A DNA stretch of 64,000 nt from a virus (IMGVR_UViG_3300048930_000409:1-64000); one strand, 5' to 3'; numbered from the stretch's first letter, positions 19,834 through 35,324 are shown. Numbers and translations: made by a program. Notes: generated from the sequence alone by a model not told the origin.

Positions 19834-20013
19834 ATGACCCTCGATGAACTGATTACCCAGCTACAGGAACTCCGAGCCGACGCCCCGGAATACGGACCCC
19901 GCGACGTCAAAATCGAGTGGACGTGGATGCAGGCATCCATCGAAGACGTCGATGCTGGAACAGGACGGTTCGGGGACCGTGTCATCGTCATCAAGGCAGA
20001 CGTCGACGAATGA
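19834..20013 (+). CDS. small hypothetical protein
   Basis: MTLDELITQLQ; GGAG SD. Confidence 0.6.
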   Translation: MTLDELITQLQELRADAPEYGPRDVKIEWTWMQASIEDVDAGTGRFGDRVIVIKADVDE

Positions 20014-21446
20014 AAACCTTCTGGCCCCATCAAGAGAAGGCGATGGCCTACGCCGCGCCCCGCGACCGCATCGCGCTGTTCATGGAAATGCGCTGCGGCA
20101 AGACGCCTGTGGCCATCCGCTGGATGCGGAACAAGCTCCCCCAGGGCGGCACGATCCTGGTCCTCGGTCCGACCGAGGTCCTGGACGATTGGATCGACGA
20201 GCTCCGGGACGAGGGCGAGACACGCATCCTGATGGCGGCGGGGATGAAGCCCGCCGACCGCGAGTCCCTGGTCGAAGAGATACGCAGCTACACCGGGTCA
20301 TCGCGTATCTGGGTGCTGTTCAACTACGAGGCCATCCGCGCATCGCAGGCCACGTTCCTCGAACGCGTGCCGACGTGGGACGGCATCATCGCAGACGAGT
20401 CGACCAAGCTCCGGAACCCGAAAGCCAAGACCACAAAGCTGGTCACGAAGCTTGGTGCCCGCGTCCGGTACCGGGCTATCCTGACGGGGTTACCCAATCC
20501 GGAAGGCCCCGAAGACTACTTCAGTCAGTTCGTGTTCCTCAACGGGCAGTTCATGGGGTCCGACAATTTCTGGCTGTGGAGAGAGCGCAAGTTCTTTCAG
20601 CCCGTCGGATTCCAAGCATGGAAGTGGGCCGCCCGTGCGACCACCGTCACCGAGATCAAGACCGAGGTCGCCCGCGAAGCGTTCCGCATGACGCGCAAGC
20701 GGGCCAAGATCGGCGGCGCCCTGCTCCAGAACCGATGGATGGTCGACCCCACCGAAGAGCAGGTCAAGGCGATGAAGTCAGTGATGAAACACTTCAGCGT
20801 CGGCGACCATCAAACGCAGTGGGCCACGGTACGCGACGTGTGGCTGGCCCGCATCGCTGGAGGCTACCTCCCAGAAGCGGGGCCGGTCGATGAGGAGACC
20901 GGTGAGCCGACGACGACGTACCGGATGATCTCGGACCGGAAACATCAGGCATTGTTGAACCGCCTGCAGACGGACTTAAGGGGTGAACCGGTCGTGGTGT
21001 GGTTCCGGTTCAACCGGGAACTGTACGACGTCCAACGCGTCCTGCAGGATGCCGGGATTGATGCGCGGGCGATTACCGGCATGACACCCCGCGTCGACCG
21101 GGTGAAGATCCGCACGGCGTTCAAGGAGGGGAAGTTCAACGTCATTCTCATCCAGCTGGCCACGGGGCTGTATGGGTTGAACCTCTCGAGAGCGTCGACC
21201 GCGATCTACTTCTCCAACAAGTACGATTTGGAAGTGCGCGCGCAATCGCAGGACCGCATCATCCACGGCATGAAGACATCGGCCTCGCACGTCATCGATC
21301 TGGTGTGCCGGGGGTCCATTGACGAGGCCGTCTCCAAGGCGTTGCGGAAGAAGTGGAACAACCAACAGGCCTTCGACATGGCCCTTGCGTCCGAGTGGGG
21401 CGCCCAATTCCAGAGGATGTATGGCAACGCTAAATCGCGACAGTGA
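20010..21446 (+). CDS. SNF2-family (SF2) helicase
   Basis: WPHQ Q-motif, MRCGKT, ADEST, LTGLP, GLNL, QSQDRI. Confidence 0.9.
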   Translation: MKTFWPHQEKAMAYAAPRDRIALFMEMRCGKTPVAIRWMRNKLPQGGTILVLGPTEVLDDWIDELRDEGETRILMAAGMKPADRESLVEEIRSYTGSSRIWVLFNYEAIRASQATFLERVPTWDGIIADESTKLRNPKAKTTKLVTKLGARVRYRAILTGLPNPEGPEDYFSQFVFLNGQFMGSDNFWLWRERKFFQPVGFQAWKWAARATTVTEIKTEVAREAFRMTRKRAKIGGALLQNRWMVDPTEEQVKAMKSVMKHFSVGDHQTQWATVRDVWLARIAGGYLPEAGPVDEETGEPTTTYRMISDRKHQALLNRLQTDLRGEPVVVWFRFNRELYDVQRVLQDAGIDARAITGMTPRVDRVKIRTAFKEGKFNVILIQLATGLYGLNLSRASTAIYFSNKYDLEVRAQSQDRIIHGMKTSASHVIDLVCRGSIDEAVSKALRKKWNNQQAFDMALASEWGAQFQRMYGNAKSRQ

Positions 21447-22179: not shown

Positions 22180-22574
22180 CATGGATCGCGCCGTGGTACC
22201 AGCGCCAGCGTGAGTACCATCGCTCGGCCGAGTGGGGGACCGCCGCCGTCGCACGGGTGAAGTTCGCAGCGGGGGAGGCGTGGTCCGCCGAGGATTACGC
22301 CGACCTGATGCCGCCGATGCCTGATCTGTCGACGCACGCCACGCGTCAGCGGTCCGTCGTTCACATCAGGGACTGGCGGACCGGAGACGTGACGTACATC
22401 TGTCTTGGCGACATGACGGTGGACGCGATTCTGTTTCAGCAAGGAAAGCTGCGGCCCGACCGGACCGCGTTTGATGAAGCCTGGCATACCGCCTACGATC
22501 AGGAGCTCGACTACCGTGCCCAAGTCAGTGCCTACGAAACGCAAACCCACGGCCGCTACGACGGCGCAGGTTGA
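22176..22574 (+). CDS. hypothetical protein
   Basis: coupled ORF. Confidence 0.55.
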   Translation: MTWIAPWYQRQREYHRSAEWGTAAVARVKFAAGEAWSAEDYADLMPPMPDLSTHATRQRSVVHIRDWRTGDVTYICLGDMTVDAILFQQGKLRPDRTAFDEAWHTAYDQELDYRAQVSAYETQTHGRYDGAG

Positions 22575-23571
22575 GGAGGCGTTCTACATTCTGGAACGCG
22601 ACGGCATCACGTTCTCGCTGCTGTCGACGTTCCGCGACTGCCGGTGGAAGGCCCGCAACTACATGAAGGGCATCACAAAGATGTCCATGGGCTTCCCCAT
22701 CGTCTTCGGCAACATCGTCCACGCCGCGCTGGAACACGCCTACCAGGGTGTCCGCGACGGCGAATGGGAGGGAGTCATTCCCCGGCCCGTGTTGGGTAAT
22801 CTGCTTGACACGTTGGAGGGAACGTTCAAGAAGGAAAACCCTCGGATGAATGCCGAGTTGACCCAGGACCTCGAGCTCACCATGCTGATGACACAGCAAG
22901 TGTTGCCCCGGTATTTTTCGTTCTGGTGGGAACGGGATAGCGAGCTCACGTGGCTCGAGACCGAGCAGGAGTTCAAGTTGCCGTGGGCGATCACCTTGCC
23001 TGCGGTGTCGGTGAACGGTATCTGGCAGCCCCGCGTGGTCAAGACGTACTTGCGCGGGAAGATCGACGGGTTGTTCGAGCGTGCGTCCGGGGTCGGGTCG
23101 TTCGAGACCAAGACCAAGGGCCGTGTCGAGCCGGGCAACCTGATGTCCATGTTGCCGTACAATCTGCAAGTCATGATCTACTTGCTGGCGGCCGAGATCC
23201 TGTACGGCAAAACGCCGACGTCAGTGATCTACAACATCGTGCGACGCCCGCAACTGCGACAGAAGCAGTCCGAGAACCTGGCGCAGTTCGCGCAGCGCAT
23301 CGGTGAAGACATCGATGATCGGCCCGACTTCTATTTCATGCGGATCAACATGGACCTCGAGCCGAACGACCTGAAACGGGGTCGGGCGAACCTCGACGAC
23401 TTGCTCCGTGACTTCGTGCTGTGGTGGATCGGCGAGGGCGGGCACTACCCGAACGACAACCACTGCGAAAACAAGTACGGGACGTGCGAGTTTCTGAACT
23501 GGTGCGACGGGAGCATGCGGAACCAGTACTACATCCGGCCGAAAATGTTCAGCGAATTGGGGGACGTATGA
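22474..23571 (+). CDS. Cas4/AddB-like PD-(D/E)xK exonuclease
   Basis: FSLLSTFRDC, GKIDGL, FETKT, Q...Y; C-terminal C..C..C completing a 1+3 Cys cluster. Confidence 0.85.
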   Translation: MKPGIPPTIRSSTTVPKSVPTKRKPTAATTAQVEEAFYILERDGITFSLLSTFRDCRWKARNYMKGITKMSMGFPIVFGNIVHAALEHAYQGVRDGEWEGVIPRPVLGNLLDTLEGTFKKENPRMNAELTQDLELTMLMTQQVLPRYFSFWWERDSELTWLETEQEFKLPWAITLPAVSVNGIWQPRVVKTYLRGKIDGLFERASGVGSFETKTKGRVEPGNLMSMLPYNLQVMIYLLAAEILYGKTPTSVIYNIVRRPQLRQKQSENLAQFAQRIGEDIDDRPDFYFMRINMDLEPNDLKRGRANLDDLLRDFVLWWIGEGGHYPNDNHCENKYGTCEFLNWCDGSMRNQYYIRPKMFSELGDV

Positions 23572-24065
23572 GCAATGAAACGCCCGTGTTGACGAAAGAA
23601 CAGCGAGAGAGATTGACGAGAATCGCTCGCAACTCCATGGTCGGAGGAGACCTCCAAGCGGTACTCGCTGCCCTCACCGCCGCCGAGCAGCAGGTGACGG
23701 AGCTGCGGCGGGAGCGGGCCGACCTTGGCGCTCAACTCTACGCGCAGACCGAGCGGGTCAAGCACCTGCTCGACACCATCGACGTGGAGCGCACTGGGCG
23801 CAAGGAAGCCGAAGCCGCCCGCGACGTCGCGCGGGAGGAGGCCGAAAAGTGGCGCACTGCCGCCCGCGTGCTCTGTGGTGCCCATGTTGGCGTTCCGCAG
23901 GCGACGTGCCCGGTGTGTGACCTCGCAGCCGCGCGGGAGGAGACGGCGAGGCTGAGAGGTGCGCTCGAGTTCTACGCTACTCACCACAGCGGCTACGGCG
24001 CAACGGCCAGAGCTGCCCTCACCCCCACCCCGCCCCAGCCCGCGGCGCGGACGGAGGAGGGGTAG
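23568..24065 (+). CDS. coiled-coil hypothetical protein
   Basis: ends QPAARTEEG within the junction repeat. Confidence 0.6.
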   Translation: MSNETPVLTKEQRERLTRIARNSMVGGDLQAVLAALTAAEQQVTELRRERADLGAQLYAQTERVKHLLDTIDVERTGRKEAEAARDVAREEAEKWRTAARVLCGAHVGVPQATCPVCDLAAAREETARLRGALEFYATHHSGYGATARAALTPTPPQPAARTEEG

Positions 24066-24281
24066 ATGACAGTTGTAACGATTGATTGCGGCGGCGGTTG
24101 CCGCTACGAGGTGCCTGTGTATCTCATCGCTGAAGTGCATCACGGCTTTGGCGGATGGGGCTCCAGTGGCGTACGCCGCGTGACGCTCACGACCGGCAAG
24201 GTGTACACCGAAGTCGAGAACCTCGATGAGATTCGACGTGCCATCGCCGAAGCACCGGAGCCCCCGGCGGTGCCCCGATGA
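24066..24281 (+). CDS. hypothetical protein
   Basis: starts within the junction repeat. Confidence 0.6.
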   Translation: MTVVTIDCGGGCRYEVPVYLIAEVHHGFGGWGSSGVRRVTLTTGKVYTEVENLDEIRRAIAEAPEPPAVPR

Positions 24282-24649
24282 CCCGCGAAGCCGCCCAGTC
24301 CGCGGCCCGCGCCCTGCTCGACGCGATGGCGGGGACGACGCCAAAGGGATGCTCTTACACAGCCCCGACATTCGGCGCGAATTACCCGGATGGCGTGTGT
24401 GTCGAGGGCTACTTGTGGGATGCCGACTCCGGCGACTCAGACGGAGATGGATGGGTTTACACGAGCGGCGGAGAGATCCCGTGCCCGTTCTGTAACCGAG
24501 GCGCGGCCATCGAGGCGTGCGCGGAGGAGATGGCTTTCGACAGCCCGAACGAGCGCCACAGGTCGCACCACTTCAGGAAGCGGGCCGAGAAGCGCATCGA
24601 CACGCACCTGCACGACATGCAGCTTCGCTACGGACCGTTCAGGCGATGA
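24278..24649 (+). CDS. hypothetical protein with CPFC motif
   Basis: FGANYPDG.C.EGYLWDADS...IPCPFCN. Confidence 0.65.
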   Translation: MTREAAQSAARALLDAMAGTTPKGCSYTAPTFGANYPDGVCVEGYLWDADSGDSDGDGWVYTSGGEIPCPFCNRGAAIEACAEEMAFDSPNERHRSHHFRKRAEKRIDTHLHDMQLRYGPFRR

Positions 24650-24722
24650 CAACCAAATACATCGCCCGCGCCTGCCCCGCCCGCCTCGGGCCGGTGCTGC
24701 GGGCGCTGATGGGGAGGACTAG

Positions 24723-24947
24723 ATGAGCACCGTTGTGATCAACCCGAACGACACCGCGGATGCCGTTAAGCGAAGGTATCAGGCAGTGTACGGCGAGGAC
24801 GCCTACGACCGCCTTGGCGACGATGAAGACGCGTGCCAGGACGAACCATACGGGTATCGGGCGCGTCTGCTGGCGAAGGCGCACGCGTTGCTCCACCGCG
24901 AAGAAGGCCGAAGCATGTACGGAGAGCCGCCCGAGGCCCCTCGATGA
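24723..24947 (+). CDS. hypothetical protein
   Basis: GGAGG SD. Confidence 0.55.
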   Translation: MSTVVINPNDTADAVKRRYQAVYGEDAYDRLGDDEDACQDEPYGYRARLLAKAHALLHREEGRSMYGEPPEAPR

Positions 24948-25009
24948 CCCGCCCACCCGACTTCGACTTGGGGACGGCGGAGGGGATTGCGCGGACGGAG
25001 GAGGGGTAG

Positions 25010-25240
25010 ATGGCCTGCACAGGAATCTCCGCATCGTGGTGCCCTGAGTGTGGCAACTGCACCTGCCCATACGACGAGGCGGTCGGCTACATCGGCGACA
25101 GGGACACGCCAGGATGCCCGCTCCATGACCCGAACTCGCCGCACGCCGAGTGGAAGTTCTTCTGCGGTTTGGAGCAGGCCGAGTCAATGCCGCCACTGGT
25201 AATGCGAAACCAGCCCGCGGCGCGGACGGAGGAGGGGTAG
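25010..25240 (+). CDS. small Cys/His-rich protein
   Basis: bounded by two junction repeats. Confidence 0.6.
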   Translation: MACTGISASWCPECGNCTCPYDEAVGYIGDRDTPGCPLHDPNSPHAEWKFFCGLEQAESMPPLVMRNQPAARTEEG

Positions 25241-25528
25241 ATGAGTTCTTGGATACAGCATGTCTCGCGACCGGCGCCGCACGTCCCAGTGCCGTGCTCG
25301 TATTGCTCGACGCCTGCGATGTCGCGCACATCGAACTGTGTCTCATGCGGCGGGCCCTTGGTGTGGCCCGACATCGTCGAGGAATACATCGAGCGCCGCA
25401 TCGACATCAGCCGTGATATTCTCGACGTGACGAGCATGGGTGACACGTTTCAGACGTTTCAAGTAGGAAAAAAAACCGCCATTTTGTCAGAAACCATCGT
25501 GCGGTCGTCTGTGCAAAAAACCAGTTGA
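25241..25528 (+). CDS. Zn-ribbon hypothetical protein
   Basis: CSYC...CVSCG. Confidence 0.55.
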   Translation: MSSWIQHVSRPAPHVPVPCSYCSTPAMSRTSNCVSCGGPLVWPDIVEEYIERRIDISRDILDVTSMGDTFQTFQVGKKTAILSETIVRSSVQKTS

Positions 25529-25553
25529 CGCAGGGTGTGGCATGTTCCATGAT
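25525..25553 (+). promoter_or_regulatory. sigma70-like promoter of the nucleotide-modification operon
   Basis: TTGACG-17-CATGAT. Confidence 0.7.
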
Positions 25554-25560
25554 GGTGTTC

Positions 25561-25673
25561 CACCGGGCGGGGAAACACGCAGTGGATGGGCACGCGGACG
25601 GTCCTCGAGGCACTCCGATACCCACGACCTGATGATGCCCGCCCGGTGACTGTTCGAGATACTCGAGGACTTC
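25561..25673 (+). promoter_or_regulatory. structured 5' leader (riboswitch-like candidate)
   Basis: 11-bp stem 25561-25571/25638-25648; crossing 9-bp pairing 25601-25609/25662-25670 covers the SD. Confidence 0.45.
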
Positions 25674-26531
25674 GTGAACTATACTGAAGAGATCGTCATC
25701 ATCGGCGGCGGCATGGTCGGGCGCGTAGCCCAGCGATACATGCCGGATGCCTTGATTCTGGATTGGGGGCCGCCCCCGGTCGCCACGCCCCGGCCACAGA
25801 CGTACGGCGCTATCTACTGGTGGGAGCCAGTTGCCGACCTGCCGTGTGTCCAGTTCCAGGTCCTGACCACCATCGACGGCGAGACGCCCACCCCCGAGGG
25901 CATTCGCGCGTACAAGGAACGCGTGGGCAAGGGATTCGAGGTCCAGACCCGGCCCGATGCCGTCGCCCGGCAGTTCCAGCCGCTGTCGCACGGGTATGCG
26001 CCGACGTCGTTCCCAGCGCCGTCCCGCATCATGTACCGCGCCAGAGTCGAGCGTATCGACCCCGACGTCCGCATGCTGCACATGGTGAACGGGGACACGT
26101 ACCTGTACACACACCTGGTGTCGACTATCCCGCTGCCGGCGCTGCTGAAGATGCTGCCGTTCGACGCCGTCGATCAGTTCGAGCATATGGAGTTCCGGTC
26201 GCGCCCCATCTTTGTCACGGTTGCTCCTGACGACCATGAAGCCCGCACCGTGCTCCAGGTCAACTACTCGACGACGGGCAATGCTTACCGCGAGACGCGG
26301 CATCTGGACGGGTCCACCCATCGGGAGTATGCTTCGGCGCCGATGTACACCGAGTTGCCCGTGAAAAAGCTGGTGCCGGGGCGCATCTACGACGCTTTGC
26401 AATCCGCCGAACTGTTGCTGCACCTGCGTGGGATGGCCATCCACAGCTTCGGCCGCTATGGTCGGTGGGACTCGGACGAGTTGCTGCACATGACCGACGC
26501 CCAGCTCCGGACGTTCGCGTCACTTCTCTAG
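25674..26531 (+). CDS. FAD-dependent oxidoreductase (UDP-galactopyranose-mutase/PPO-like)
   Basis: IIGGGMVG Rossmann motif, LVSTIPL, C-terminal GRYGRW. Confidence 0.75.
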   Translation: MNYTEEIVIIGGGMVGRVAQRYMPDALILDWGPPPVATPRPQTYGAIYWWEPVADLPCVQFQVLTTIDGETPTPEGIRAYKERVGKGFEVQTRPDAVARQFQPLSHGYAPTSFPAPSRIMYRARVERIDPDVRMLHMVNGDTYLYTHLVSTIPLPALLKMLPFDAVDQFEHMEFRSRPIFVTVAPDDHEARTVLQVNYSTTGNAYRETRHLDGSTHREYASAPMYTELPVKKLVPGRIYDALQSAELLLHLRGMAIHSFGRYGRWDSDELLHMTDAQLRTFASLL

Positions 26532-26539
26532 GAGACATC

Positions 26540-26674
26540 ATGAAGATACTTCGTGCCCTTTGGCGCCTGATCGTCAGCGACGACAAGCCATTCAGTCAGG
26601 AATGGATGGATTCCCTCAAGTACGACCGCCAGGGATGGGCGGACGCCCCCTCATGGAAGAGGCTGGGACGATGA
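26540..26674 (+). CDS. small hypothetical protein
   Basis: AGGAG SD, ATGA-coupled. Confidence 0.5.
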   Translation: MKILRALWRLIVSDDKPFSQEWMDSLKYDRQGWADAPSWKRLGR

Positions 26675-27642
26675 GCGAGTGGGGAAAGATCTGGCACGAC
26701 CAGTACGGGTTCAATCGGAAGTTTCGGCCCGACCCCGAGACGGACGCGGAACGAGCCGAGCAGGTCAAGGACATTGCCCTGTTGATGCAGTCTGAGATCC
26801 ATGAGTTGCTCCAGACCGTGGCGTGGAAGAAGCATCGGAAGGACACCCGGCACCGCCCGAACATGGCGCATAGCCATGAAGAACTCACGGACATCTTCAA
26901 GTACTTCGTAACGCTGTGCAACCTGTTTGATGTCACGCCAGAAGCGCTCCAGCGCTTGTACTGGGCTAAGTCGGCCGTGTGCGAGCAGCGATATGTCGAA
27001 GAGTGGGTGTCCGACTACGCGCGGGGCAACCTGCGGGCCAAGGTGGCCATCGTCGACCTGGACAACGTCATCTTTGACTACATCGATCACTTCGGCAACT
27101 TCCTGTACCTGCAGCCCCTGGGCGACGACGTACGGCTGACTCTGATTCGCCTGATCGGCGAACGCAAGTGGATCAGCGCCGAGTCGACAGGCATTCCGGT
27201 GTCGGTGTTCGAGGCGTACAAGCACATGTACCGGACCAGCGGCGCGAAGGCGCACCTGCCCTTGATGCCGTACGCCAAGGAATTTATGCAGGCGCTTCGC
27301 GGGTTGGGATACGTCATCATCGTTGTCACGTCACGGCCGATTGACCGCTACCCGAACCTGATGATGGACACGATTGCCAGTCTGAACCGACACGGCCTGC
27401 CGTACGACCACGTCTGGCACGGCCCGTCAAAGAAAACCGTCCTCGTCGAACGGCTGTCGCCGATGCCGTCGCAGATCTTCGCGATCGACGATGACCCGAA
27501 GTATGTCCAGGAATACGTCAGCCTGGGCATTCCTGTCTTCCATGTGTTGAACGGAGGGACGACCCCGCTGACACAGACGGTCGGGCGCGTACCCGTCGCC
27601 GACCTGGAAGATGCGTTGAACTGCCTGCACCTGATCGGATAG
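26671..27642 (+). CDS. all-alpha NTP pyrophosphatase (dimeric dUTPase/dCTPase/MazG-like) fused to HAD 5'-nucleotidase-like domain
   Basis: SEIHELL...WKKH...EELTDIFKY; then VDLDNVI, VTSRP, IDDDP. Confidence 0.8.
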   Translation: MSEWGKIWHDQYGFNRKFRPDPETDAERAEQVKDIALLMQSEIHELLQTVAWKKHRKDTRHRPNMAHSHEELTDIFKYFVTLCNLFDVTPEALQRLYWAKSAVCEQRYVEEWVSDYARGNLRAKVAIVDLDNVIFDYIDHFGNFLYLQPLGDDVRLTLIRLIGERKWISAESTGIPVSVFEAYKHMYRTSGAKAHLPLMPYAKEFMQALRGLGYVIIVVTSRPIDRYPNLMMDTIASLNRHGLPYDHVWHGPSKKTVLVERLSPMPSQIFAIDDDPKYVQEYVSLGIPVFHVLNGGTTPLTQTVGRVPVADLEDALNCLHLIG

Positions 27643-27647
27643 CACCC

Positions 27648-28802
27648 ATGCCTGACTACGCTGACGCGGGCCACCGCCCGCACGCCGACCACCGGGGGGA
27701 GACCCCTGACTTCAAGATCACGAATGGCCCCGAGTCCATTTCCGTGACGCTGGACACCTGGGGGCCTCGCGACTACTACTCCGCGATGTTCGACTACCTC
27801 CAGTCGAACTGGGGCGGGGCGCCGTCGCGGATTCAGGAGGCGTTGGACCACCCAGAAATTGACGTCGACCACGATGTCGAAGTGTACCTCGACGCGTGCT
27901 TCGGCGGGCGCACACTCCAGCAAGTGTTGGAGGGCATCACGTTCTGGTTCACCATCGACGGCGTAACTCGCGCCATGACTCATGAGATGGTGCGTGCTCG
28001 GTTCGCCGCGTTCATGCAGCATGGCGGGCGCGACAACGACTGGCGCCATCGGGACTGGACCATGCCCGAGACGATCCGCCGGGCCTCAGGCGCTCGCATG
28101 CCGCCGCATCCCACAGCGCCCTGGGACGGCAAACGAGGAAAAGACCGAGTCGACGCCAAGAACCAGTGGCTGAGAGAACAGCTTGACGCCGACCCGACAC
28201 TCCGGTGGACGTGTATCACCGACCACCAGCCTGTCGAAGCGCTGCTCGGCGCCTACGACGAAATCCTGCCCGATGACCGGTTCGGGTTGCAGGATGTCAT
28301 CGAACACCACCTCCGTGAAGGCAAGCGCATCTACGCCGCGCTGGTCGACGCAGGCATACCGTGGCAGGACGCGCGGCGGCTGCTGCCCATCGGCACGCAG
28401 ACGTACATCCACGGGATTTACAACTTCATTTCGTTGCGCGACTTCCTGGCCAACCGGATGGAGTTCATCATGGACTGGGAAATCAACTGCGTCGCGCAGC
28501 TGATGTACCGCGAGATCCTGATGAAGTGCCCGCCTCTCATCGGCAAGTACCTGGGGTCGCACTCCGACCGCCAGGGCCGTGCCGCGTTCGCCGGACTGGA
28601 CTCGTGGCCCCCGGACATGAAGTACCAGCCCACGTTCGAGCAGGAAGACCCCGTGCTGACGCCGCGCCAGCATCGCCGTGAGCAGATGCCGTTCTGGGTC
28701 CTGGCCCAGTCGTCGTTGGACGGCGGGCCGGTGAAGTGGATTCCCACGAACGGCACCTACCCCCACGACCATCCCGACGCCCCCAAGCCGAGGACTCGGT
28801 GA
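27648..28802 (+). CDS. ThyX-like flavin-dependent thymidylate synthase homolog with altered active site
   Basis: FTIDGVTRAMTHEMVRAR, DARRLLP, N..SL..FL..R, WEI; RHRx7S motif not intact. Confidence 0.8.
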   Translation: MPDYADAGHRPHADHRGETPDFKITNGPESISVTLDTWGPRDYYSAMFDYLQSNWGGAPSRIQEALDHPEIDVDHDVEVYLDACFGGRTLQQVLEGITFWFTIDGVTRAMTHEMVRARFAAFMQHGGRDNDWRHRDWTMPETIRRASGARMPPHPTAPWDGKRGKDRVDAKNQWLREQLDADPTLRWTCITDHQPVEALLGAYDEILPDDRFGLQDVIEHHLREGKRIYAALVDAGIPWQDARRLLPIGTQTYIHGIYNFISLRDFLANRMEFIMDWEINCVAQLMYREILMKCPPLIGKYLGSHSDRQGRAAFAGLDSWPPDMKYQPTFEQEDPVLTPRQHRREQMPFWVLAQSSLDGGPVKWIPTNGTYPHDHPDAPKPRTR

Positions 28803-28925
28803 CCGTGCGGCGGGTCCACCCCCTGAACGCCTGGTTCCTGGGGGTGTTGGAGAAGCACCACGGGGCTGACCTGGACAGCCTCGCGGGATACGGTGACGAC
28901 CATCAACGAAGTGACGAGGAGTACA

Positions 28926-29825
28926 ATGGCGAAAGTGAAGCGCATGCCCCCGAAGAAAGCCGGCGACGTGTTGGCCAAGGCCCCCAAGGCCAAAGCCGAC
29001 GACGCCCCGGCGTTCGCCCTACCGACTGACCTGTCGGAGCCGTCCGATTCGTTGCAGGATTACAGCATCCTGCTGTACGGCGCGAAGAAGATCGGCAAGA
29101 CCACCTTGGCGTCGATGTTCCCTGGCGCCTACTTCCTGATGACGGAGCCGGGCGGCCGGGCGCTCCGCATCTACCAGACGCCTGTCACCACGTGGAAGAC
29201 GGCCAAGGACGCGTTGCGGGCGCTGGAGAAGAACCCCGGCAAGTTCCGCACCGTCGTCGTCGATACGGTCGACATGCTGTACCAGCTGTGCTTCGCGCAC
29301 GTCGGCAAGATCGAGGGGTGGGATCACCCGTCCGAGGAAGCGTGGGGCAAGGGATGGGCGGCGCTCCGCAAGGAGTTGTCCGACTACATCACGCGCCTGA
29401 TGGCGTTGCCGATGGGCGTCGTGCTGATCTCCCATGCCACGGAGAAGGAGGTCCAGAAGAGGGACGGCACGAAGTACGACCGCATCCAGCCGACCATGTC
29501 GGGCATGGCCCGCGACTTGGTCGAGGCCATGGTCGATATCTGGATGTACTACGACTACGACGGCGAGGAGCGCGTGTTGCTGCTCCAGGGAGACGACCAC
29601 ATCGCGGCGGGCCACCGCCTGCAGGAACACTTCAGGGCACCGGACGGCGTCCGGTATGTGCGGTCGGTCCCCATGGGGAACGCGCCTGAAGTGGGGTTCA
29701 AGAACCTGATGGCGGCCTTCGACAACACGTTGCCGGTCCCCGACGACGTCGACGAGCCGCCGCCCGCCGTCGCGGCCCCGAAGGCCGTGAAGAAGATGGG
29801 CGTCAAGAAGAAAGCGAAGGCGTGA
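28926..29825 (+). CDS. AAA_24/Sak4-like ATPase
   Basis: LLYGAKKIGKTT, VVVDTVD, GKGW, LISH. Confidence 0.85.
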   Translation: MAKVKRMPPKKAGDVLAKAPKAKADDAPAFALPTDLSEPSDSLQDYSILLYGAKKIGKTTLASMFPGAYFLMTEPGGRALRIYQTPVTTWKTAKDALRALEKNPGKFRTVVVDTVDMLYQLCFAHVGKIEGWDHPSEEAWGKGWAALRKELSDYITRLMALPMGVVLISHATEKEVQKRDGTKYDRIQPTMSGMARDLVEAMVDIWMYYDYDGEERVLLLQGDDHIAAGHRLQEHFRAPDGVRYVRSVPMGNAPEVGFKNLMAAFDNTLPVPDDVDEPPPAVAAPKAVKKMGVKKKAKA

Positions 29826-29971
29826 TGGCGACATCGACCAATCCCCGTGACTGGAAAATCGAGTTGGCGTTGCTGCTCCGCGAGTTGACCGAGATCGCCA
29901 AGGTCGCGCGGGCCAGTTTGGAACAGGAAGCCGAGCACGCTCGGAAAATTCGGGAACGGTCCACGCGATGA
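29825..29971 (+). CDS. small helical protein
   Basis: 48 aa, coupled to both neighbours. Confidence 0.45.
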   Translation: MATSTNPRDWKIELALLLRELTEIAKVARASLEQEAEHARKIRERSTR

Positions 29972-30882
29972 AGGTCAGCGTCAAGCGCGTCGGGTCGCGG
30001 CCGGTCGACCATCCGTCCGAGGACCGCCCACAGCTGTGGCAAAAGTCCATGGCGGTGTGCATCCCGTCCTCGGGGCGGCCCGCGCTCTTGGCTAAGACGC
30101 TGCACACGCAACCGTTCCTGAACGACCGGTCCACCTTCATCGGCGTGGCCACTCACGAAGCCGCCGAGTACCGGACGATGCTTCGCACGGTCGCGCCGTC
30201 AGTCCGACTGGTGACGTACGACAACCCCGAGGGGTCTATTGCGGTCTGCCGTGAGCACTTGCGACAGGCCGCGTTGGACGCCATTCCTGGCGGCCGGATG
30301 GACCGCTTCTGGGTCGTCGTCACGGACGATAACGCGTCGTACTCGTACACGGCGCTCCAGACCTTGGTCGGGGTCGCGTCGTCGTGGCGGGAGCAGCCCT
30401 GCATCGTCGCAGGGATGCACGGCACGGCGGCGCACTTCGACCGTCACCGCATCGGAGAAATGGAGGTGCATGCCGGGTATCGATCCTATCCGCAGGTCGC
30501 CATGATCTTCCAAGTCTACCCCGCGTCGATGTACGCGGACTACGCGTATCCCGCTGATGCGTATGGACTGGATGACCGGCACCTGGCGTTTTGGGCCATT
30601 GCGAAAAAAGGTTTGACCCGTAGTCAATTCCGCGTTGCAATGGACGCACCGTTTCGGAAGTCGCGGTACCAAGCTGGCGGGCAAGGCGACGCGAGGAAAC
30701 GGGCACGAAAGACGGGGCTGGCCATCGCACGGTTGGCCCTGGACTTCCCTGAATTGGTCGGGACACGCGGCACGTTCCCGACTCCATGGCAAATCATCTT
30801 TGCCCTTGCCGAGGGCAAGCAGGTTGACCGGTTGGCGGCCGGCAGCATGCGTAGTGAATCCGCCTTGATCCACCAGGAGTAG
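29968..30882 (+). CDS. GT-A glycosyltransferase, TAGT/GREB1-like (putative DNA-base glycosyltransferase)
   Basis: VCIPSSGRP, E...Y, R, WVVVTDDN, DD..L, GG pattern. Confidence 0.65.
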   Translation: MKVSVKRVGSRPVDHPSEDRPQLWQKSMAVCIPSSGRPALLAKTLHTQPFLNDRSTFIGVATHEAAEYRTMLRTVAPSVRLVTYDNPEGSIAVCREHLRQAALDAIPGGRMDRFWVVVTDDNASYSYTALQTLVGVASSWREQPCIVAGMHGTAAHFDRHRIGEMEVHAGYRSYPQVAMIFQVYPASMYADYAYPADAYGLDDRHLAFWAIAKKGLTRSQFRVAMDAPFRKSRYQAGGQGDARKRARKTGLAIARLALDFPELVGTRGTFPTPWQIIFALAEGKQVDRLAAGSMRSESALIHQE

Positions 30883-30884
30883 TC

Positions 30885-31784
30885 GTGGCCAAGAAGACCG
30901 CAGCACCCCAGACCGATTTCCAGAAGGCTCTCAAGAAGTCCGGCGCCAACTGGGACTCCGCGCGTGAGAAGGCCGCCACCAGCAAGGGCGGCGCCTACCA
31001 GGAATTCGACGACGGCAAGTACCTCGCTCGCGTCCAGAAGATGGAGCCCGGCGTCAACACCAAGGGCCCCTACATCATGGTGATGTTCAAGTTCGTGGAC
31101 GGCGACTACGAGGGCCAGACCAAGCCGCTGTTCCAGAACCTCCAGACGGACGAGAACCTCTTCCACGCCGCCAAGCTGATCGGTTCCTTCGGGTACGAGA
31201 TCCCCGAGAACATCGCCGACATCGAGAGCATCTGCGAAGCCATCACGGCCGAAAAGCCGCTCTGCAAGATCACCATCAAGACCAAGGGCGAGTACCAGAA
31301 CGTCTTCCTCGACAAGGTCATCTCCAGCGACGAGGGCGACGAGGACGCCGAGGAGGAGGACGGCGACGAGGACGCCGAGGAGGAATCCGCCGAGGCCGAG
31401 GCCGAGGACGAGGACGAGACCGAGGAGGCCGACGAGGAGTCCGAGGAAGAGGAATCCGAGGACGAGGACGAGGACGAGGAAGAAGAGGAAGACGAGGAGG
31501 AGGCCGACGAGGACGACACGGCCGAACTCGAGATCGGCATGCGAGTCGAGGCCGAGACGGCCAAGGGCACGCGCCAGGGCGTCGTCCACAAGATGGACCC
31601 CGCCGCCGAGACCGTCAAGATCCGCGATGACGCGGGCAAGATCTTCACGGTGCCCGCCTCGGCCGTCTCGCTTCTGGCCGATGTCCCCGACGAGCCCGAA
31701 CCGCCTCCGGCCAAGCCGAAGGGCGTGAAGAAGCCGGCCGCCCCGGTGACCCCGGCGCCGACGACCAAGAAGAAGACCAAGTAG
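30885..31784 (+). CDS. SSB-like (DUF669-like) protein with acidic tract and C-terminal SH3/KOW-like domain
   Basis: DGKY...GPYIMVMFK..DGDYEG...GEYQNV; about 65-aa D/E tract; position near AAA ATPase. Confidence 0.65.
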   Translation: MAKKTAAPQTDFQKALKKSGANWDSAREKAATSKGGAYQEFDDGKYLARVQKMEPGVNTKGPYIMVMFKFVDGDYEGQTKPLFQNLQTDENLFHAAKLIGSFGYEIPENIADIESICEAITAEKPLCKITIKTKGEYQNVFLDKVISSDEGDEDAEEEDGDEDAEEESAEAEAEDEDETEEADEESEEEESEDEDEDEEEEEDEEEADEDDTAELEIGMRVEAETAKGTRQGVVHKMDPAAETVKIRDDAGKIFTVPASAVSLLADVPDEPEPPPAKPKGVKKPAAPVTPAPTTKKKTK

Positions 31785-31868
31785 CACTGCCCGGCCCCGA
31801 CCGGGTGTAGGACCATGCGGGGGCGGGCGCGATGCCTTCCCCCGCATTTCCTGTCACGGAGGACACCT

Positions 31869-32249
31869 ATGTCAGACATGCCGTCATCGTTCGCCGAATT
31901 GTTGCGGGGCCTGCAGGACCCTCCAGCGGACCCGCCCGTGCCCCCGGACCCCGACACCATGGACGTCGGCGAGTCCCGCCCCGTGACCCTGCAGGAGGCG
32001 TTGTGGGTCGAAGAGATCCGGGCCATGGCCGAACCATCCGCCAAGATCCGGGCCATCACCGCGTTGCTGCATGTCCGGTCAGGCGAGACGGTCAAGCATG
32101 AGCAGTTGGCCATCATGCCGCTGGAAGACTTTCACCGGGCCGTGTCTCGCATGATGGCGGACCTGATGCCCAAACTGGAGAAGGCTCAGCACCTCGCGTC
32201 GATGCTGAACTTGTTCCGTCAGACGCCGCCGAACGGGAGCGGACATTGA
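31869..32249 (+). CDS. hypothetical protein
   Basis: GGAGG SD. Confidence 0.6.
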   Translation: MSDMPSSFAELLRGLQDPPADPPVPPDPDTMDVGESRPVTLQEALWVEEIRAMAEPSAKIRAITALLHVRSGETVKHEQLAIMPLEDFHRAVSRMMADLMPKLEKAQHLASMLNLFRQTPPNGSGH

Positions 32250-32518
32250 AGGCCCAGCTGAACGACGGCCCACAGGTGTGGTTCTGGTGCGCTGGGTGCG
32301 AGACGCATCATGCAATCGACCCAACCAAGTGGACATGGAACGGCGACACTGAACGGCCAACGTTCCGGCCATCGGTACTCGTGACCTACACATTCGGGGT
32401 CGAGCGCACGCCCAAGCGTTGTCACTCGTTCGTAACCGACGGGCATATTCAGTACCTCGACGACTGCACACATGCGCTCGCCGGGCAGACCGTGCTGTTG
32501 GAGGATGTCGAGCTATGA
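32246..32518 (+). CDS. DUF6527-family protein
   Basis: FWCAGC..HH...WTWNGD..PTF.PS...CHSFVTDG.IQYL.DC.H.LAG. Confidence 0.8.
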   Translation: MKAQLNDGPQVWFWCAGCETHHAIDPTKWTWNGDTERPTFRPSVLVTYTFGVERTPKRCHSFVTDGHIQYLDDCTHALAGQTVLLEDVEL

Positions 32519-33150
32519 ACCCCAGGAAGTTCACCGCGCTGGTCGGCCGGTTCTTCCAAGACTGCATGGGAGTCATGGCCCCGAAGAATTCAGACTACAA
32601 TCCGGACGCCGCCGTTCTACTGGATGTGTTCCGGGCGGCCTGTGAAGAAGGGTATCCCCCGGAAACGGTGCTGCGCGTGTTTCTCCGCAAACACTGGACT
32701 GTCATCCGGGGATGGACCCAGGGGCACGTGCATCTGTCCGAGGGACTGGACTCCCGAATGCATGATGCCGCGAACTACATCGGCATGCTGTACATACTGT
32801 CCGTCCCAGAATATCGGGACGAAATCTTCGCAGGTATCTTGAAACTCGAGGGGCAAGCATGCGCGTGCGGGTGCGTCGGACAGCTGGCAGTCAGGGAGTC
32901 ATACGACGGGAATCGAGTCAGAGACGAGCTCCTGTTGCCCCCACGGTGCGAACACGGCGCGCTGTTCCTGTGGCTACTGAGATTGAAAAGTACTTTGGAT
33001 TCGAGTCCCGCGTCGTGGCCCATGACACGGAAGGTACTGGACTCGTTCCGTACGGCCCAGTCAGCTATTGGGGCTACGCCCCCGCCCGACCGTTCGCCTT
33101 CGCGTACTGCGACGCCACCGGCCGCACGGCCTACGTCCGATACACCGTAG
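32515..33150 (+). CDS. nucleotide-modification-associated domain 1 (Nmad1/DUF1599-like) protein
   Basis: KNSDY...KH...E.LDSR..DAANY. Confidence 0.6.
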   Translation: MNPRKFTALVGRFFQDCMGVMAPKNSDYNPDAAVLLDVFRAACEEGYPPETVLRVFLRKHWTVIRGWTQGHVHLSEGLDSRMHDAANYIGMLYILSVPEYRDEIFAGILKLEGQACACGCVGQLAVRESYDGNRVRDELLLPPRCEHGALFLWLLRLKSTLDSSPASWPMTRKVLDSFRTAQSAIGATPPPDRSPSRTATPPAARPTSDTP

Positions 33151-35324
33151 ACCCGTATACGCGCAAGCCGCTGATCGAAAACGACGAAGACTGGGACCAC
33201 ATCGTCGCGCTGCACGCCAGCGAGGAGTTCATCAAGGTCGGCCACAACATCGGCTATGACATGCGGATGGATCGGATGGTCGGGGCGCCTATTCTGGGCG
33301 ATATCCACGACACGATGATTCTGGCGCACGTCATCACGGGCGGCGACGAGCTGATGTACGGCTTGAAACCGTTGGCCAAGAAATACTTGGACTACCCGGA
33401 TGACGACGAAAAGATCCTCGAGGCGGCCGTCAACATGGCCCGCCGTGCCGCCAAGGCACAAGGGTTTTTGATTGCCGGGGGCAAGAAAGAGGTCGAGCGC
33501 GGCGACCATGTCGTGTTCGCGGGCAGCAAACCGGCCAAGGCCGACTACTGGCTTGGTCCGGAAGAGATGTGCGAGGAGTACGCTGTCGGCGACGTCCGGC
33601 GCACCATGCTGATGTTCCTGCTGTGGTTCGAGCGTCTGATGCGCGACCAGCGAGGGGCTGTCACGTACGCCCGAGAGATGCAGTTGTTCCGGGCTCTCCG
33701 TCGGATGGAAGACCGGGGTACGCGGGTCGACCCCGTGCATGCGGCGAAGCTGGTGAAGTGGTACAACGCTTACGCCGCCCGCATGCGCCGATGGGCCGAT
33801 GCCAACGGGGCCGAGGGCGTGAACTTCCGGTCGCCCAAGCAGCTGTGCCGCATCTTCTACGATGAACGTGGCCTGGAACCGGCGTACACTAAGAAAGGTC
33901 ACGAGAAAATCGAGCTCGCCCGCGCCATGGGCGAGGAACCCGATTGGGAGGCGTTGAAGAAGCATAGGTCGTTGGGCAAGGACCAGTTGGCCGAATGGGG
34001 CGGCAAAGACGAACTGACCGACACGTACAAAGACGAGATGGCCAAGGCCATCTTGGAATGGCGGGCGGCCAAGCAGAGCATCAGTTCGTTCCTGAACATT
34101 TACGAGAAGTTCTGGTATCCCGAGGGGCCGGTGTACCAGACCGAAGAAAATCTCGCCGAGTACAACCGGCGCCTCACCCTGTCGCCCCAGGAGAAGGTCG
34201 AATGGGAAAAGGACGAGTGGGTGTTCGTCCTGCACCCGAACTACAACCAGACCGGGGCCGTGACTGGGCGTATGACGTGCTCCGACCCGAATCTGCAGCA
34301 GGTCGCCTCTGCGACTACTGGTTTGCGCAAGGCCGACATCCCGAGCCGACCGAGAGAATGCTTCGGCCCGCGACCCGGATGCATCTGGTATCTACCCGAC
34401 TACTCGCAGGTGGAAGTGTGGCTCTTCGCGTTCCTCTCCGGGGAACCGAACATGAAGGGCCTGCTCTTGTCTGGACACGATTTCCACAGCGGAGTCGCGT
34501 CAAAAACGTTTACCTCGCGACCGGACTACGAAGAGCGGAGCAAGTATTACCGGAAGCTGGCCAAGCTGATCATGTTCGGCAAGCTGTATGGTGGTGGTGT
34601 TGGTTCACGGGAGAAGCCGGGCCGCATGACCAAACTGCTCCAGATGCCGTTCGACGAAGCGAAGGAGTTCATCGAGTCGTTCGATGAGGAGTTCGCCCAG
34701 GCCACCGCGTTCATGAAGCGCATGGCCAAGGACGCCAAGCGTACCGGCGAGGCGTTCAACATCTTCGGCCGGCGCTACGTCCTGGGCCCGGACTGGGCCT
34801 ACAAGGTCGTGAACTATCTGATCCAGGGTGCCGCGGCGGACATCCTGAAGAATGCCACCATCCGGCTGGACTGGATGTTGCAGACGCGCTGGGAGATCCT
34901 CGACCCCCGGTGCCGCATGATCAACTCCATCCACGACGAGTTCATGGTCGAGGTACCGTACACCGTCCATTCACGGCGCCTGATGTACGAGATTATCTAC
35001 ACGATGCAGATGGATTCCGCCCTGGCCGGGTTGCCGGTGCCGCTGCCGATTGGCATCAAGACCGCCAAGAAGCGATGGTCCCACACCACGGACGTGGACA
35101 TTCCCGACTGGGTGAAAGGTGGCGTGCCGCGTGGCCCGGAGGGCACTCGATACTTCCGTGATCTGGAACGACATATGCAGGATTGCCCGTATACGGAATC
35201 CTATGCCGGGGCGCAAGCCCAATTTGCCCGCACGCGAGCTGCTCTTGATTTACGCGACGCTGAGCGCGAGCCAGAGCCAGATCGGGCTGCTCCGCGACGA
35301 AATCGAAGAAGAACGGCGGCTTAG
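32970..35324 (+). CDS. polA: family A DNA polymerase with 3'-5' exonuclease
   Basis: DTEGTG, GHNIGYD, HDTM, TGRMTC..PNLQQ, DYSQVE, RKLAKLIMFGKLYG, NYLIQGAAAD, IHDE; start GTG 32970 inferred (frame open from 32859). Confidence 0.95.
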   Translation: MATEIEKYFGFESRVVAHDTEGTGLVPYGPVSYWGYAPARPFAFAYCDATGRTAYVRYTVDPYTRKPLIENDEDWDHIVALHASEEFIKVGHNIGYDMRMDRMVGAPILGDIHDTMILAHVITGGDELMYGLKPLAKKYLDYPDDDEKILEAAVNMARRAAKAQGFLIAGGKKEVERGDHVVFAGSKPAKADYWLGPEEMCEEYAVGDVRRTMLMFLLWFERLMRDQRGAVTYAREMQLFRALRRMEDRGTRVDPVHAAKLVKWYNAYAARMRRWADANGAEGVNFRSPKQLCRIFYDERGLEPAYTKKGHEKIELARAMGEEPDWEALKKHRSLGKDQLAEWGGKDELTDTYKDEMAKAILEWRAAKQSISSFLNIYEKFWYPEGPVYQTEENLAEYNRRLTLSPQEKVEWEKDEWVFVLHPNYNQTGAVTGRMTCSDPNLQQVASATTGLRKADIPSRPRECFGPRPGCIWYLPDYSQVEVWLFAFLSGEPNMKGLLLSGHDFHSGVASKTFTSRPDYEERSKYYRKLAKLIMFGKLYGGGVGSREKPGRMTKLLQMPFDEAKEFIESFDEEFAQATAFMKRMAKDAKRTGEAFNIFGRRYVLGPDWAYKVVNYLIQGAAADILKNATIRLDWMLQTRWEILDPRCRMINSIHDEFMVEVPYTVHSRRLMYEIIYTMQMDSALAGLPVPLPIGIKTAKKRWSHTTDVDIPDWVKGGVPRGPEGTRYFRDLERHMQDCPYTESYAGAQAQFARTRAALDLRDAEREPEPDRAAPRRNRRRTAA

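Follow-up and report, generated by a model that had tools for sequence, protein, structure and literature searches.

A Divergent ThyX, a Small Flavoprotein and a Pyrophosphatase–Nucleotidase Fusion Form a Conserved Trio in Uncultivated Phages and Probably Make an Unusual DNA Base

Introduction

Phages that replace a pyrimidine in the manner of T4 or SPO1 use a ThyA-fold hydroxymethylase together with a dNTPase or dNMPase (acting on deoxynucleoside tri- or monophosphates), a kinase and, in some cases, a glycosyltransferase (GT). To our knowledge, every phage route to a C5-modified pyrimidine that has been characterised begins either with a ThyA-fold enzyme or with a TET/JBP dioxygenase. A different solution exists in tRNA, where the MnmEG and MnmC proteins that make xm5U deliver a folate- and flavin-borne one-carbon unit to the C5 of uracil, a nucleophile captures it, and a flavin adenine dinucleotide (FAD) oxidoreductase and an S-adenosylmethionine (SAM) methyltransferase then act on the product. 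The TAGT glycosyltransferases, best known for their association with 5-hydroxymethylcytosine (5hmC), and the Nmad1 family were reportedly defined by Iyer and colleagues in 2013. The routes to 5-hydroxymethyldeoxyuridine in phages are covered elsewhere (PMC8989533). The present work concerns a locus in a window of 64,000 nucleotides (the whole stretch of DNA that was analysed) which constitutes the first 64 kb of the 76,211-bp virus record IMGVR_UViG_3300048930_000409 from IMG/VR, rated complete by CheckV. Its core is formed by three adjacent genes, o1, o2 and o3, that encode a small flavoprotein, a fusion of a nucleoside triphosphate (NTP) pyrophosphatase with a nucleotidase, and a divergent ThyX.

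The logic that is proposed below for this trio would be that of the T4/SPO1 pathway: a one-carbon transferase acting on C5 of a dNMP, destruction of the competing nucleotide, incorporation by the phage polymerase, and optional post-replicative tailoring that includes glycosylation. The parts differ, since the transferase has the ThyX fold and not the ThyA fold, an extra and obligate flavoprotein is present, and the pyrophosphatase and the nucleotidase are fused. An analogy with MnmEG and MnmC may also be drawn, following the comparison made for ThyX chemistry (PMC8989533), and relatives of the trio likewise carry a methyltransferase beside it; nevertheless, the protein families are unrelated and the substrate of the Mnm enzymes is tRNA, so that the parallel would be mechanistic only.

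An earlier reading of the same DNA (hereafter the original prediction) had proposed a hypermodification pathway made of five families: a mutase-like flavoprotein, the pyrophosphatase/HAD fusion, an atypical ThyX, a TAGT-like glycosyltransferase and an Nmad1-like protein. All of these open reading frames (ORFs) are present on the + strand at the coordinates given, and four of the five family assignments hold at some level. As an observation, that reading was largely right. As for its interpretation, the idea of an unusual pathway based on ThyX was right in spirit, while the composition of the unit and the job given to the flavoprotein were wrong.

The Divergent ThyX

The protein encoded by o3 clearly has the ThyX fold. 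Its match to Pfam Thy1 (PF02511) reaches 66.5 bits against a gathering cut-off of 24.8 (66.1 bits in a six-frame search), and a Foldseek search with its predicted structure (pLDDT 75) returns ThyX structures only. The score against the NCBIfam thyX equivalog (TIGR02170), 56.8 bits, is below the cut-off of 87.9. The description of o3 as an atypical ThyX is confirmed by its signature, in which the canonical RHR..S..RY has become RAR..G..RD: the window copy reads RARFAAFMQHGGRD and the family RTRxGAGFMQHGGRD, where canonical enzymes have RHRIASYSQxSQRY.

The protein was compared with its own family, with intermediate forms, with a distant clade and with canonical ThyX sequences, and it was placed on the ThyX of Thermotoga maritima (TM0449) by HMMER alignment. 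In T. maritima numbering, the five dUMP-binding (deoxyuridine monophosphate) arginines R78, R80, R90, R147 and R174 are all conserved with respect to canonical ThyX, as is E58; we take R174 to be the residue that reads the O4 of uracil. In contrast to canonical ThyX, the equivalents of H53, H79, S83, S88 and Y91 are replaced (Ser88 by Gly and Tyr91 by Asp, with RAR or RTR in place of RHR), the histidines of the GH..S..EH motif are lost, and in the close family R165 is replaced as well. What o3 has gained is an invariant GGRDNDWRHRxW loop, a His-rich N-terminal extension (approximately 60 extra residues), a conserved C-terminal extension (approximately 90) and a constant partner in the form of a separate flavoprotein. 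The Protein Data Bank (PDB) contains T. maritima ThyX mutants H53A/D, S88A, R90A, Y91F and R174K, which marks these positions as being of recognised importance. A useful comparison is PolB, the ThyX homologue of polyoxin biosynthesis that methylates C5 of UMP and dUMP; it keeps the FAD pocket, Tyr99 of its substrate-recognition peptide is essential, and it is still a methylase (PMC5003785), whereas o3 has no equivalent tyrosine.

An exhaustive profile search through 1.84 billion representatives yielded approximately 25 full-length clusters of the o3 family. Forms with R[T/S/A/Q]R grade continuously into canonical RHR, and 400 cluster representatives lie at E < 1e-10, a count that also includes canonical ThyX at lower scores. 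When two intermediate ThyX-like proteins were searched against phage records by tblastn, the only matches were ordinary phage ThyX proteins of about 28% identity. Two variants of domain composition were seen among the relatives. In one (L038:10001-11530) the ThyX-like protein ends in a carrier-protein domain (Pfam PP-binding, E 2.5e-10), in which the position of the serine of the DSL motif is aligned as Glu. In a subclade (alignment A2, columns ~440-500; for example L021:9995-11248) the C-terminal extension contains a Cys/His-rich insertion of 40-70 residues, CxxCxH ... CxxC, which is similar to a zinc ribbon and is not found in the window copy.

A Deeply Conserved Three-Gene Unit

A scan of IMG/VR with o3 yielded 43 loci, with identities of 45-92%, and in every one that had enough upstream DNA o1, o2 and o3 were adjacent and in the same order. 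The reverse scan, performed with a profile of the flavoprotein, found o2 and o3 directly downstream in 34 of 36 loci, and the other two were truncated.

The association is not confined to close relatives. A further IMG/VR scan with a profile of the intermediate forms (A6) recovered distant ThyX-like genes that lack the histidine, in phages that replicate with a polymerase of the DnaE type and a helicase resembling MCM. There, approximately 6.4 kb ahead of the ThyX-like gene and in the same orientation, a distant homologue of o1 is immediately followed by a gene for an NT5C-type HAD protein. Of the 44 loci whose upstream flank reaches 7 kb or more, 33 show this arrangement. In a third context, characterised by an AEP primase and a UvrD helicase, the flavoprotein gene immediately precedes the ThyX-like gene. 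Some members of the DnaE clade have, adjoining the flavoprotein/HAD pair, a gene of the uracil-DNA glycosylase superfamily (L109:2578-3234, Pfam E 3.6e-21), a neighbour that would be odd with plain uracil in DNA.

As a control, 80 loci (1.14 Mb) were fetched with a profile of canonical RHR ThyX. The flavoprotein was found in three of them, as compared with 46 of the 56 loci that have a ThyX without the histidine (Fisher p = 1e-22). In each of these three (L167, L197 and L201), some 2 kb from the canonical ThyX, lies another ThyX homologue, a divergent one of 355-376 aa whose motifs read RVR and GTRDNN; after it come the flavoprotein and a complete MazG-HAD fusion. The contigs are AT-rich, one of them is 116 kb long, and the trio lies downstream of the canonical gene (L197:7953-13663 and likewise in the other two). 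Because the complete trio shares these contigs with a canonical ThyX, it is not a simple replacement for thymidylate synthase, and the strongest argument against o3 simply making dTMP (thymidine monophosphate) is this pairing of neighbouring ThyX homologues, of which a single one belongs to the trio.

Since the synteny is invariant, recurs in distant lineages and coexists with canonical ThyX, o1, o2 and o3 are functionally tied and form a deeply conserved three-protein unit. The trio is common, and the divergent ThyX-like gene is found on well over a hundred viral contigs, with the flavoprotein nearby in at least 80. No cultured phage in INPHARED has the trio: among its 50,697 phage records there was no match to the region by megablast, nor to o3 or o5 (the glycosyltransferase gene described below) by tblastn. 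No paper on a ThyX-type hydroxymethylase or on the trio was found in the literature searched.

The Partners of the Divergent ThyX

The protein encoded by o2 is a fusion of two enzymes, as the original prediction had claimed. The longest ORF starts at a TTG at 26560, and relatives begin near 26671. The N-terminal half carries the acidic ExxE...ExxD residues of the all-alpha NTP pyrophosphatases (E42, E45, E71 and D74, invariant or nearly so in alignment A3), and its profile matches the dimeric dUTPases 2cje, 2yay and 1w2y in the PDB (E 1.8e-4 to 4.8e-4) as well as dCTP pyrophosphatase 1. The C-terminal half contains the four HAD motifs (DxDxV / TSRP / K / DDD) with a cap insertion, and D129/D131, T220, K254 and D274 are invariant; its profile matches the mammalian 5'(3')-deoxyribonucleotidases (2jao, E 0.027). 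A distant orthologue of this half scores 24.6 bits with Pfam NT5C, just under the cut-off of 24.8, and the window copy matches a generic HAD Pfam model only, below cut-off. Since its halves resemble dUTPases and deoxyribonucleotidases, the fusion can presumably convert a pyrimidine dNTP all the way to the nucleoside.

For the flavoprotein encoded by o1, the window copy alone has no usable match in Pfam, PHROGs or NCBIfam. When a profile of its family is used (alignment A1, 24 members), the best PDB matches are the eukaryote-type UDP-galactopyranose mutases (UGM; 4dsg, E 6e-9), and the match covers the N-terminal Rossmann motif, a "STIPL" strand, a "YR" motif and a C-terminal "GRFxxW...H" motif. 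The AF2 model (pLDDT 91.5) agrees, with the UGMs of Trypanosoma cruzi and Aspergillus fumigatus at the top of the Foldseek ranking (E 1.7e-11, TMq 0.64) and protoporphyrinogen oxidase, polyamine oxidase and renalase close behind. In 3uka the counterparts of the invariant YR and GRF motifs are "FYRAT" and "GRFGSW"; R327 and R447, the arginines with which the A. fumigatus enzyme binds the diphosphate of its substrate, are matched by position only. The mutase-like character that had been proposed is therefore borne out as a resemblance.

The resemblance has a clear limit. Proteins of the o1 family have 275-285 aa, as opposed to 470-510 in UGM, and by alignment coordinates approximately 170 UGM residues are missing, including the helical domain with which UGM covers the UDP moiety. 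Residues 13 to 103 of the o1 profile align to 22 to 224 of the UGM chain and residues 199 to 228 to 334 to 407, which leaves UGM residues without a counterpart in two places, about 120 of them from the Rossmann motif to the sheet domain and about 50 further along. In a search of 5.8 billion proteins, the family forms a tight island of approximately 100 clusters, all of 266-300 aa, unnamed and without a Pfam domain, restricted to phage-size contigs of up to ~132 kb; below this island there is a gap, and then come amine-oxidase-like proteins of ~435 aa at E ~1e-10.

These data do not favour the role first attributed to the flavoprotein, that of supplying an unusual nucleoside diphosphate (NDP) sugar to the glycosyltransferase. 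Because o1 is present in every relative and the glycosyltransferase is missing from approximately half of them, o1 is not linked to that enzyme and does not look like its sugar supplier, and the UGM helical domain is absent from it. The nearest characterised relatives of each of the three proteins of the trio are among enzymes that bind uridine or deoxyuridine nucleotides.

Interchangeable Tailoring Genes

Downstream of the trio, o5 encodes a protein whose family has an invariant acidic motif of the DxD type (D120-D121-N122). The structural model of the window protein in the Atlas has TM-scores of 0.60-0.66 to GT2/GT-A clusters, so the GT-A part of the earlier assignment stands. The TAGT part is sub-threshold: the window copy has no match in Pfam (TAGT included), PHROGs or NCBIfam, six of 16 family members match TAGT (PF20691, cut-off 27.5 bits) below threshold, with a best E of 7.5e-5, and two match a GT2 family. 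The protein shares with TAGT the GT-A fold and the acidic motif, whereas the association of that family with TET/JBP dioxygenases is not seen, there being no Tet_JBP gene in the genome.

The small helical protein encoded by o8 had been described as Nmad1-like, an assignment that found no backing: there was no match to DUF1599/Nmad1 (PF07659) in an hmmscan of nine members with E up to 10 or in a six-frame search, and a profile search of the PDB gave no match of any kind. In a language-model feature search the third match was to an Atlas cluster with DUF1599 in 27% of its members (score 0.87), which is a lead only. The family has no Pfam match and is confined to the phage group of the window, and PHROGs and NCBIfam likewise gave no usable match for the window copy.

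Neither gene is obligate. The glycosyltransferase is never found without o8 where both positions are covered, while o8 occurs without it in two lineages. A search of whole records with the glycosyltransferase profile was negative in three relatives that are an estimated 98-100% complete and have the flavoprotein (G002, G005 and G010), whereas three records used as controls gave a match. Instead of these genes, about half of the close relatives have, in the same place between the SSB-like gene and Pol A, two genes named c12 and c13 and a classical SDR; c12 gives a faint hint of a glyoxalase fold, and the SDR, conceivably a substitute for dihydrofolate reductase, has generic SDR matches only in NCBIfam. 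In one subclade the glycosyltransferase comes directly after o3 and is accompanied by a small coiled-coil protein, to which is added a radical SAM/SPASM enzyme or else a SAM methyltransferase similar to CmoB, and in the distant clade an SDR or a methyltransferase also adjoins the flavoprotein/HAD pair. The five families are thus not one obligate unit, given that the glycosyltransferase is absent from complete relatives in which the flavoprotein is always present. The locus is a core trio with interchangeable tailoring cassettes: the co-occurrence that had been expected of five families is invariant for three, and optional for the glycosyltransferase and o8.

Genomic Setting

The features of the region are collected in Table 1. 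The genome has a G+C content of approximately 63%, and the trio belongs to a replication and recombination module that extends on the + strand from ~19.9 to 37.9 kb, with the structural genes downstream on the minus strand. The gene order is SNF2 helicase, PD-(D/E)XK nuclease, approximately 2 kb of small ORFs, o1, o2, o3, the AAA_24/Sak4 gene and o5, followed by the SSB-like gene, o7, o8, Pol A and a primase/helicase; the interleaving with the AAA ATPase, the SSB-like gene and Pol A is as first described. Also as described, genes of the ThyA fold (Thymidylat_synt) and of the TET type (Tet_JBP) are absent, in fact from the entire 76-kb record, as is a dCMP deaminase. An Rfam search over 24-34 kb found no riboswitch and no other RNA family.

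Table 1. Features of the replication and recombination module around the trio (positions in the window).
Feature	Coordinates	Strand	Evidence or remark
SNF2 helicase	19917-21446	+	replication/recombination module
PD-(D/E)XK nuclease	22471-23571	+	replication/recombination module
o1, FAD-binding protein of 285 aa, UGM/amine-oxidase fold, first gene of the trio	25674-26531	+	GGGxxG Rossmann motif
o2, all-alpha NTP pyrophosphatase fused to NT5C-type HAD deoxyribonucleotidase	26671-27642	+	alignment A3, PDB profile
o3, divergent ThyX-fold protein of 384 aa	27648-28802	+	Pfam Thy1 E 3.4e-18
AAA_24/Sak4-like ATPase (recombination; context gene)	28893-29825	+	Pfam AAA_24 E 7.5e-40; phrog_124 E 4e-38
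o5, GT-A-fold glycosyltransferase, TAGT-like below threshold, optional tailoring gene	29968-30882	+	DDN motif, Atlas structure
SSB-like protein with long acidic region (context gene)	30885-31784	+	phrog_7778 SSB E 6e-7
o7, ORF of 144 aa	31815-32249	+	no Pfam, PHROGs or NCBIfam family match
o8, small helical protein, conserved part ~150-160 aa	32515-33150	+	alignment A5; accompanies o5
Family A DNA polymerase (Pol A) with 3'-5' exonuclease	32859-35324	+	Pfam DNA_pol_A E 8.7e-52

Several details of the region deserve mention. The array of small ORFs (mini-genes; 23571-25673) is an insertion found in the window and in its 92%-identical relative L002; in most relatives nothing separates the nuclease gene from that of the flavoprotein, which it precedes. 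This same relative is the only one with a tblastn match to o7. The SSB-like protein has, in the middle (~residues 148-215), about 70 residues in a row that are nearly all Asp, Glu or Ala. The longest ORF of Pol A shares 292 bases (32859-33150) with the end of o8, and the G+C content by codon position favours neither frame; since the relatives of o8 stop approximately 45 residues sooner than the window copy, the true start of Pol A is probably one of the GTG codons at 32946, 32970 or 33015.

Proposed Mechanism and Its Alternatives

The trio probably makes an unusual DNA base. The occurrence of the trio in replication modules together with interchangeable tailoring enzymes fits the pattern that nucleotide-level modification followed by post-replicative decoration takes in known phages (PMC8989533). 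The particular reaction that we tentatively favour, with a confidence that comes close to an even chance, is the modification of dUMP at C5 at the nucleotide level. Beyond the gene identities, the synteny and the coexistence with canonical ThyX, which are observations, we infer a substrate, a product, its destination in DNA and roles for the partners. The original prediction had the ThyX-fold enzyme making a non-canonical pyrimidine nucleotide; that it is no ordinary thymidylate synthase and is tied to the fusion and the flavoprotein is supported by the synteny, the recurrence and the coexistence with canonical ThyX.

In the proposed scheme, o3 would transfer a folate-derived one-carbon unit through a flavin to C5 of dUMP and would release a product other than dTMP. 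With the canonical His, Ser and Tyr of the signature lost, the exocyclic methylene may be captured by water or by an amine instead of hydride; the simplest product would be 5-hydroxymethyl-dUMP, made with water, and the alternative an aminomethyl-type compound. Nucleophile capture of a methylene delivered by flavin has been discussed for MnmEG and ThyX intermediates (PMC8989533). The flavoprotein o1 would work with o3, either as a reductase that keeps reduced a flavin that is not consumed or as an enzyme that processes the new C5 substituent in the manner of an amine oxidase. The fusion o2 would take pyrimidine dNTPs to dNMPs and then to nucleosides, tilting the pool toward the new nucleotide, which the phage Pol A would incorporate. 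Cassettes specific to each lineage would tailor the base further: the GT-A glycosyltransferase and o8 in the window, and in relatives a radical SAM enzyme, a methyltransferase, or the SDR with c12 and c13. In its boldest version, which we find conceivable though somewhat doubtful, o3 and the miniature UGM/amine-oxidase-fold protein o1 would constitute a two-protein flavin relay that places on dUMP a one-carbon substituent other than methyl (hydroxymethyl or aminomethyl, then processed). This would represent a previously unknown route of thymidine replacement in several large groups of uncultivated phages, diversified by glycosyl, radical-SAM, methyl and reductase cassettes.

A number of observations weigh against this proposal. 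The phage is uncultivated and known from sequence alone, and the sole public run that contains it is a wastewater metagenome kept as assembled contigs. There is no second thymidylate synthase besides o3 in the record, and o3 could still supply dTMP in this phage. A Walker-A scan found no dNMP kinase and, as a further difference from the T4/SPO1 pathway, no kinase of the 5-HMUDK type, the clear P-loop proteins being the Sak4-like ATPase and the terminase only; a host kinase would thus need to accept the new dNMP. The role assigned to o1 is a guess, and the clearing of dTMP by o2 makes less sense in the contigs that also have a canonical ThyX.

The frequency of restriction palindromes in the whole record adds to this. 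Some sites that contain T are avoided (GTGCAC, 0 observed and 11 expected; GGATCC, 2 and 9), which implies that the DNA lacks broad protection from restriction; any modification of thymine would be incomplete or of limited protective reach. GATC is also avoided (271 observed, 431 expected). Among 6-bp palindromes, the ratio of observed to expected (O/E) is 0.60 for words made of G and C only, 0.90 for those with two A/T positions and 0.86 for those with four, and among the G/C-only words CCGCGG is seen 13 times against 66 expected, GCGCGC 12 against 54 and GGGCCC 12 against 32.

It is unlikely, in our estimation, that the trio is an ordinary thymidylate synthase in two components, in which o3 would have lost its own handling of NADPH and flavin, o1 would supply it with reduced flavin for the synthesis of plain dTMP, o2 would act as a pool sanitiser of the dUTPase type and the glycosyltransferase would have an unrelated target. 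This explanation would account for the lack of any other ThyA or ThyX in the phage of the window and for the conservation of the dUMP-binding arginines; the loss of residues that contact FAD (the His of RHR and the R165 equivalent) makes an external source of flavin plausible, and palindrome avoidance suggests the usual exposure to restriction. However, the three contigs in which a canonical ThyX lies ~2 kb from the complete trio make redundancy unlikely, a conserved 5'-nucleotidase has no place in the supply of dTMP, and tailoring enzymes cluster with the trio.

Another possibility, and an improbable one, is that the product is a free nucleoside or nucleotide and not a base of DNA, that is, a C5-modified metabolite of the uridine type such as PolB gives rise to, or an anti-defence molecule, with the HAD domain releasing the nucleoside. 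A nucleotidase domain would suit a final dephosphorylation, the phage encodes no dNMP kinase, one relative fuses a carrier-protein domain to its ThyX-like protein, and ThyX homologues are known in pathways for nucleoside antibiotics (PMC5003785). Against it stands the position of the trio, which is always within the replication/recombination module and next to the polymerase on several unrelated phage backbones, and the family of the companion glycosyltransferase matches, below threshold, that of the DNA-base glycosyltransferases (TAGT).

Finally, the action of o3 on dCMP, giving 5-methyl- or 5-hydroxymethyl-dCMP whose hydroxymethylcytosine the glycosyltransferase would decorate as in T-even phages, seems very improbable, for although TAGT-family enzymes are generally linked to 5hmC, a canonical ThyX alongside would suit a cytosine-directed paralogue and the genome is rich in G+C, the R174 equivalent (presumably the reader of uracil O4) is invariant in all clades, o2 resembles dUTPase and the dU/dT nucleotidases, and the strongest avoidance falls on G/C-only palindromes (CCCGGG, 3 observed and 47 expected), which speaks against wholesale cytosine modification and would not be expected if every C were modified.

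Implications

If dUMP is indeed modified at C5 by this trio, this ThyX-fold pathway with its obligate flavoprotein would open a third way into C5-modified pyrimidines, independent of the other two, and for both flavoenzyme folds the reaction would be new. The trio offers enzymology a clean and testable system of three genes, and it serves as a marker for a large group of phages on whose DNA sequencing, restriction and CRISPR assays may give unexpected results.

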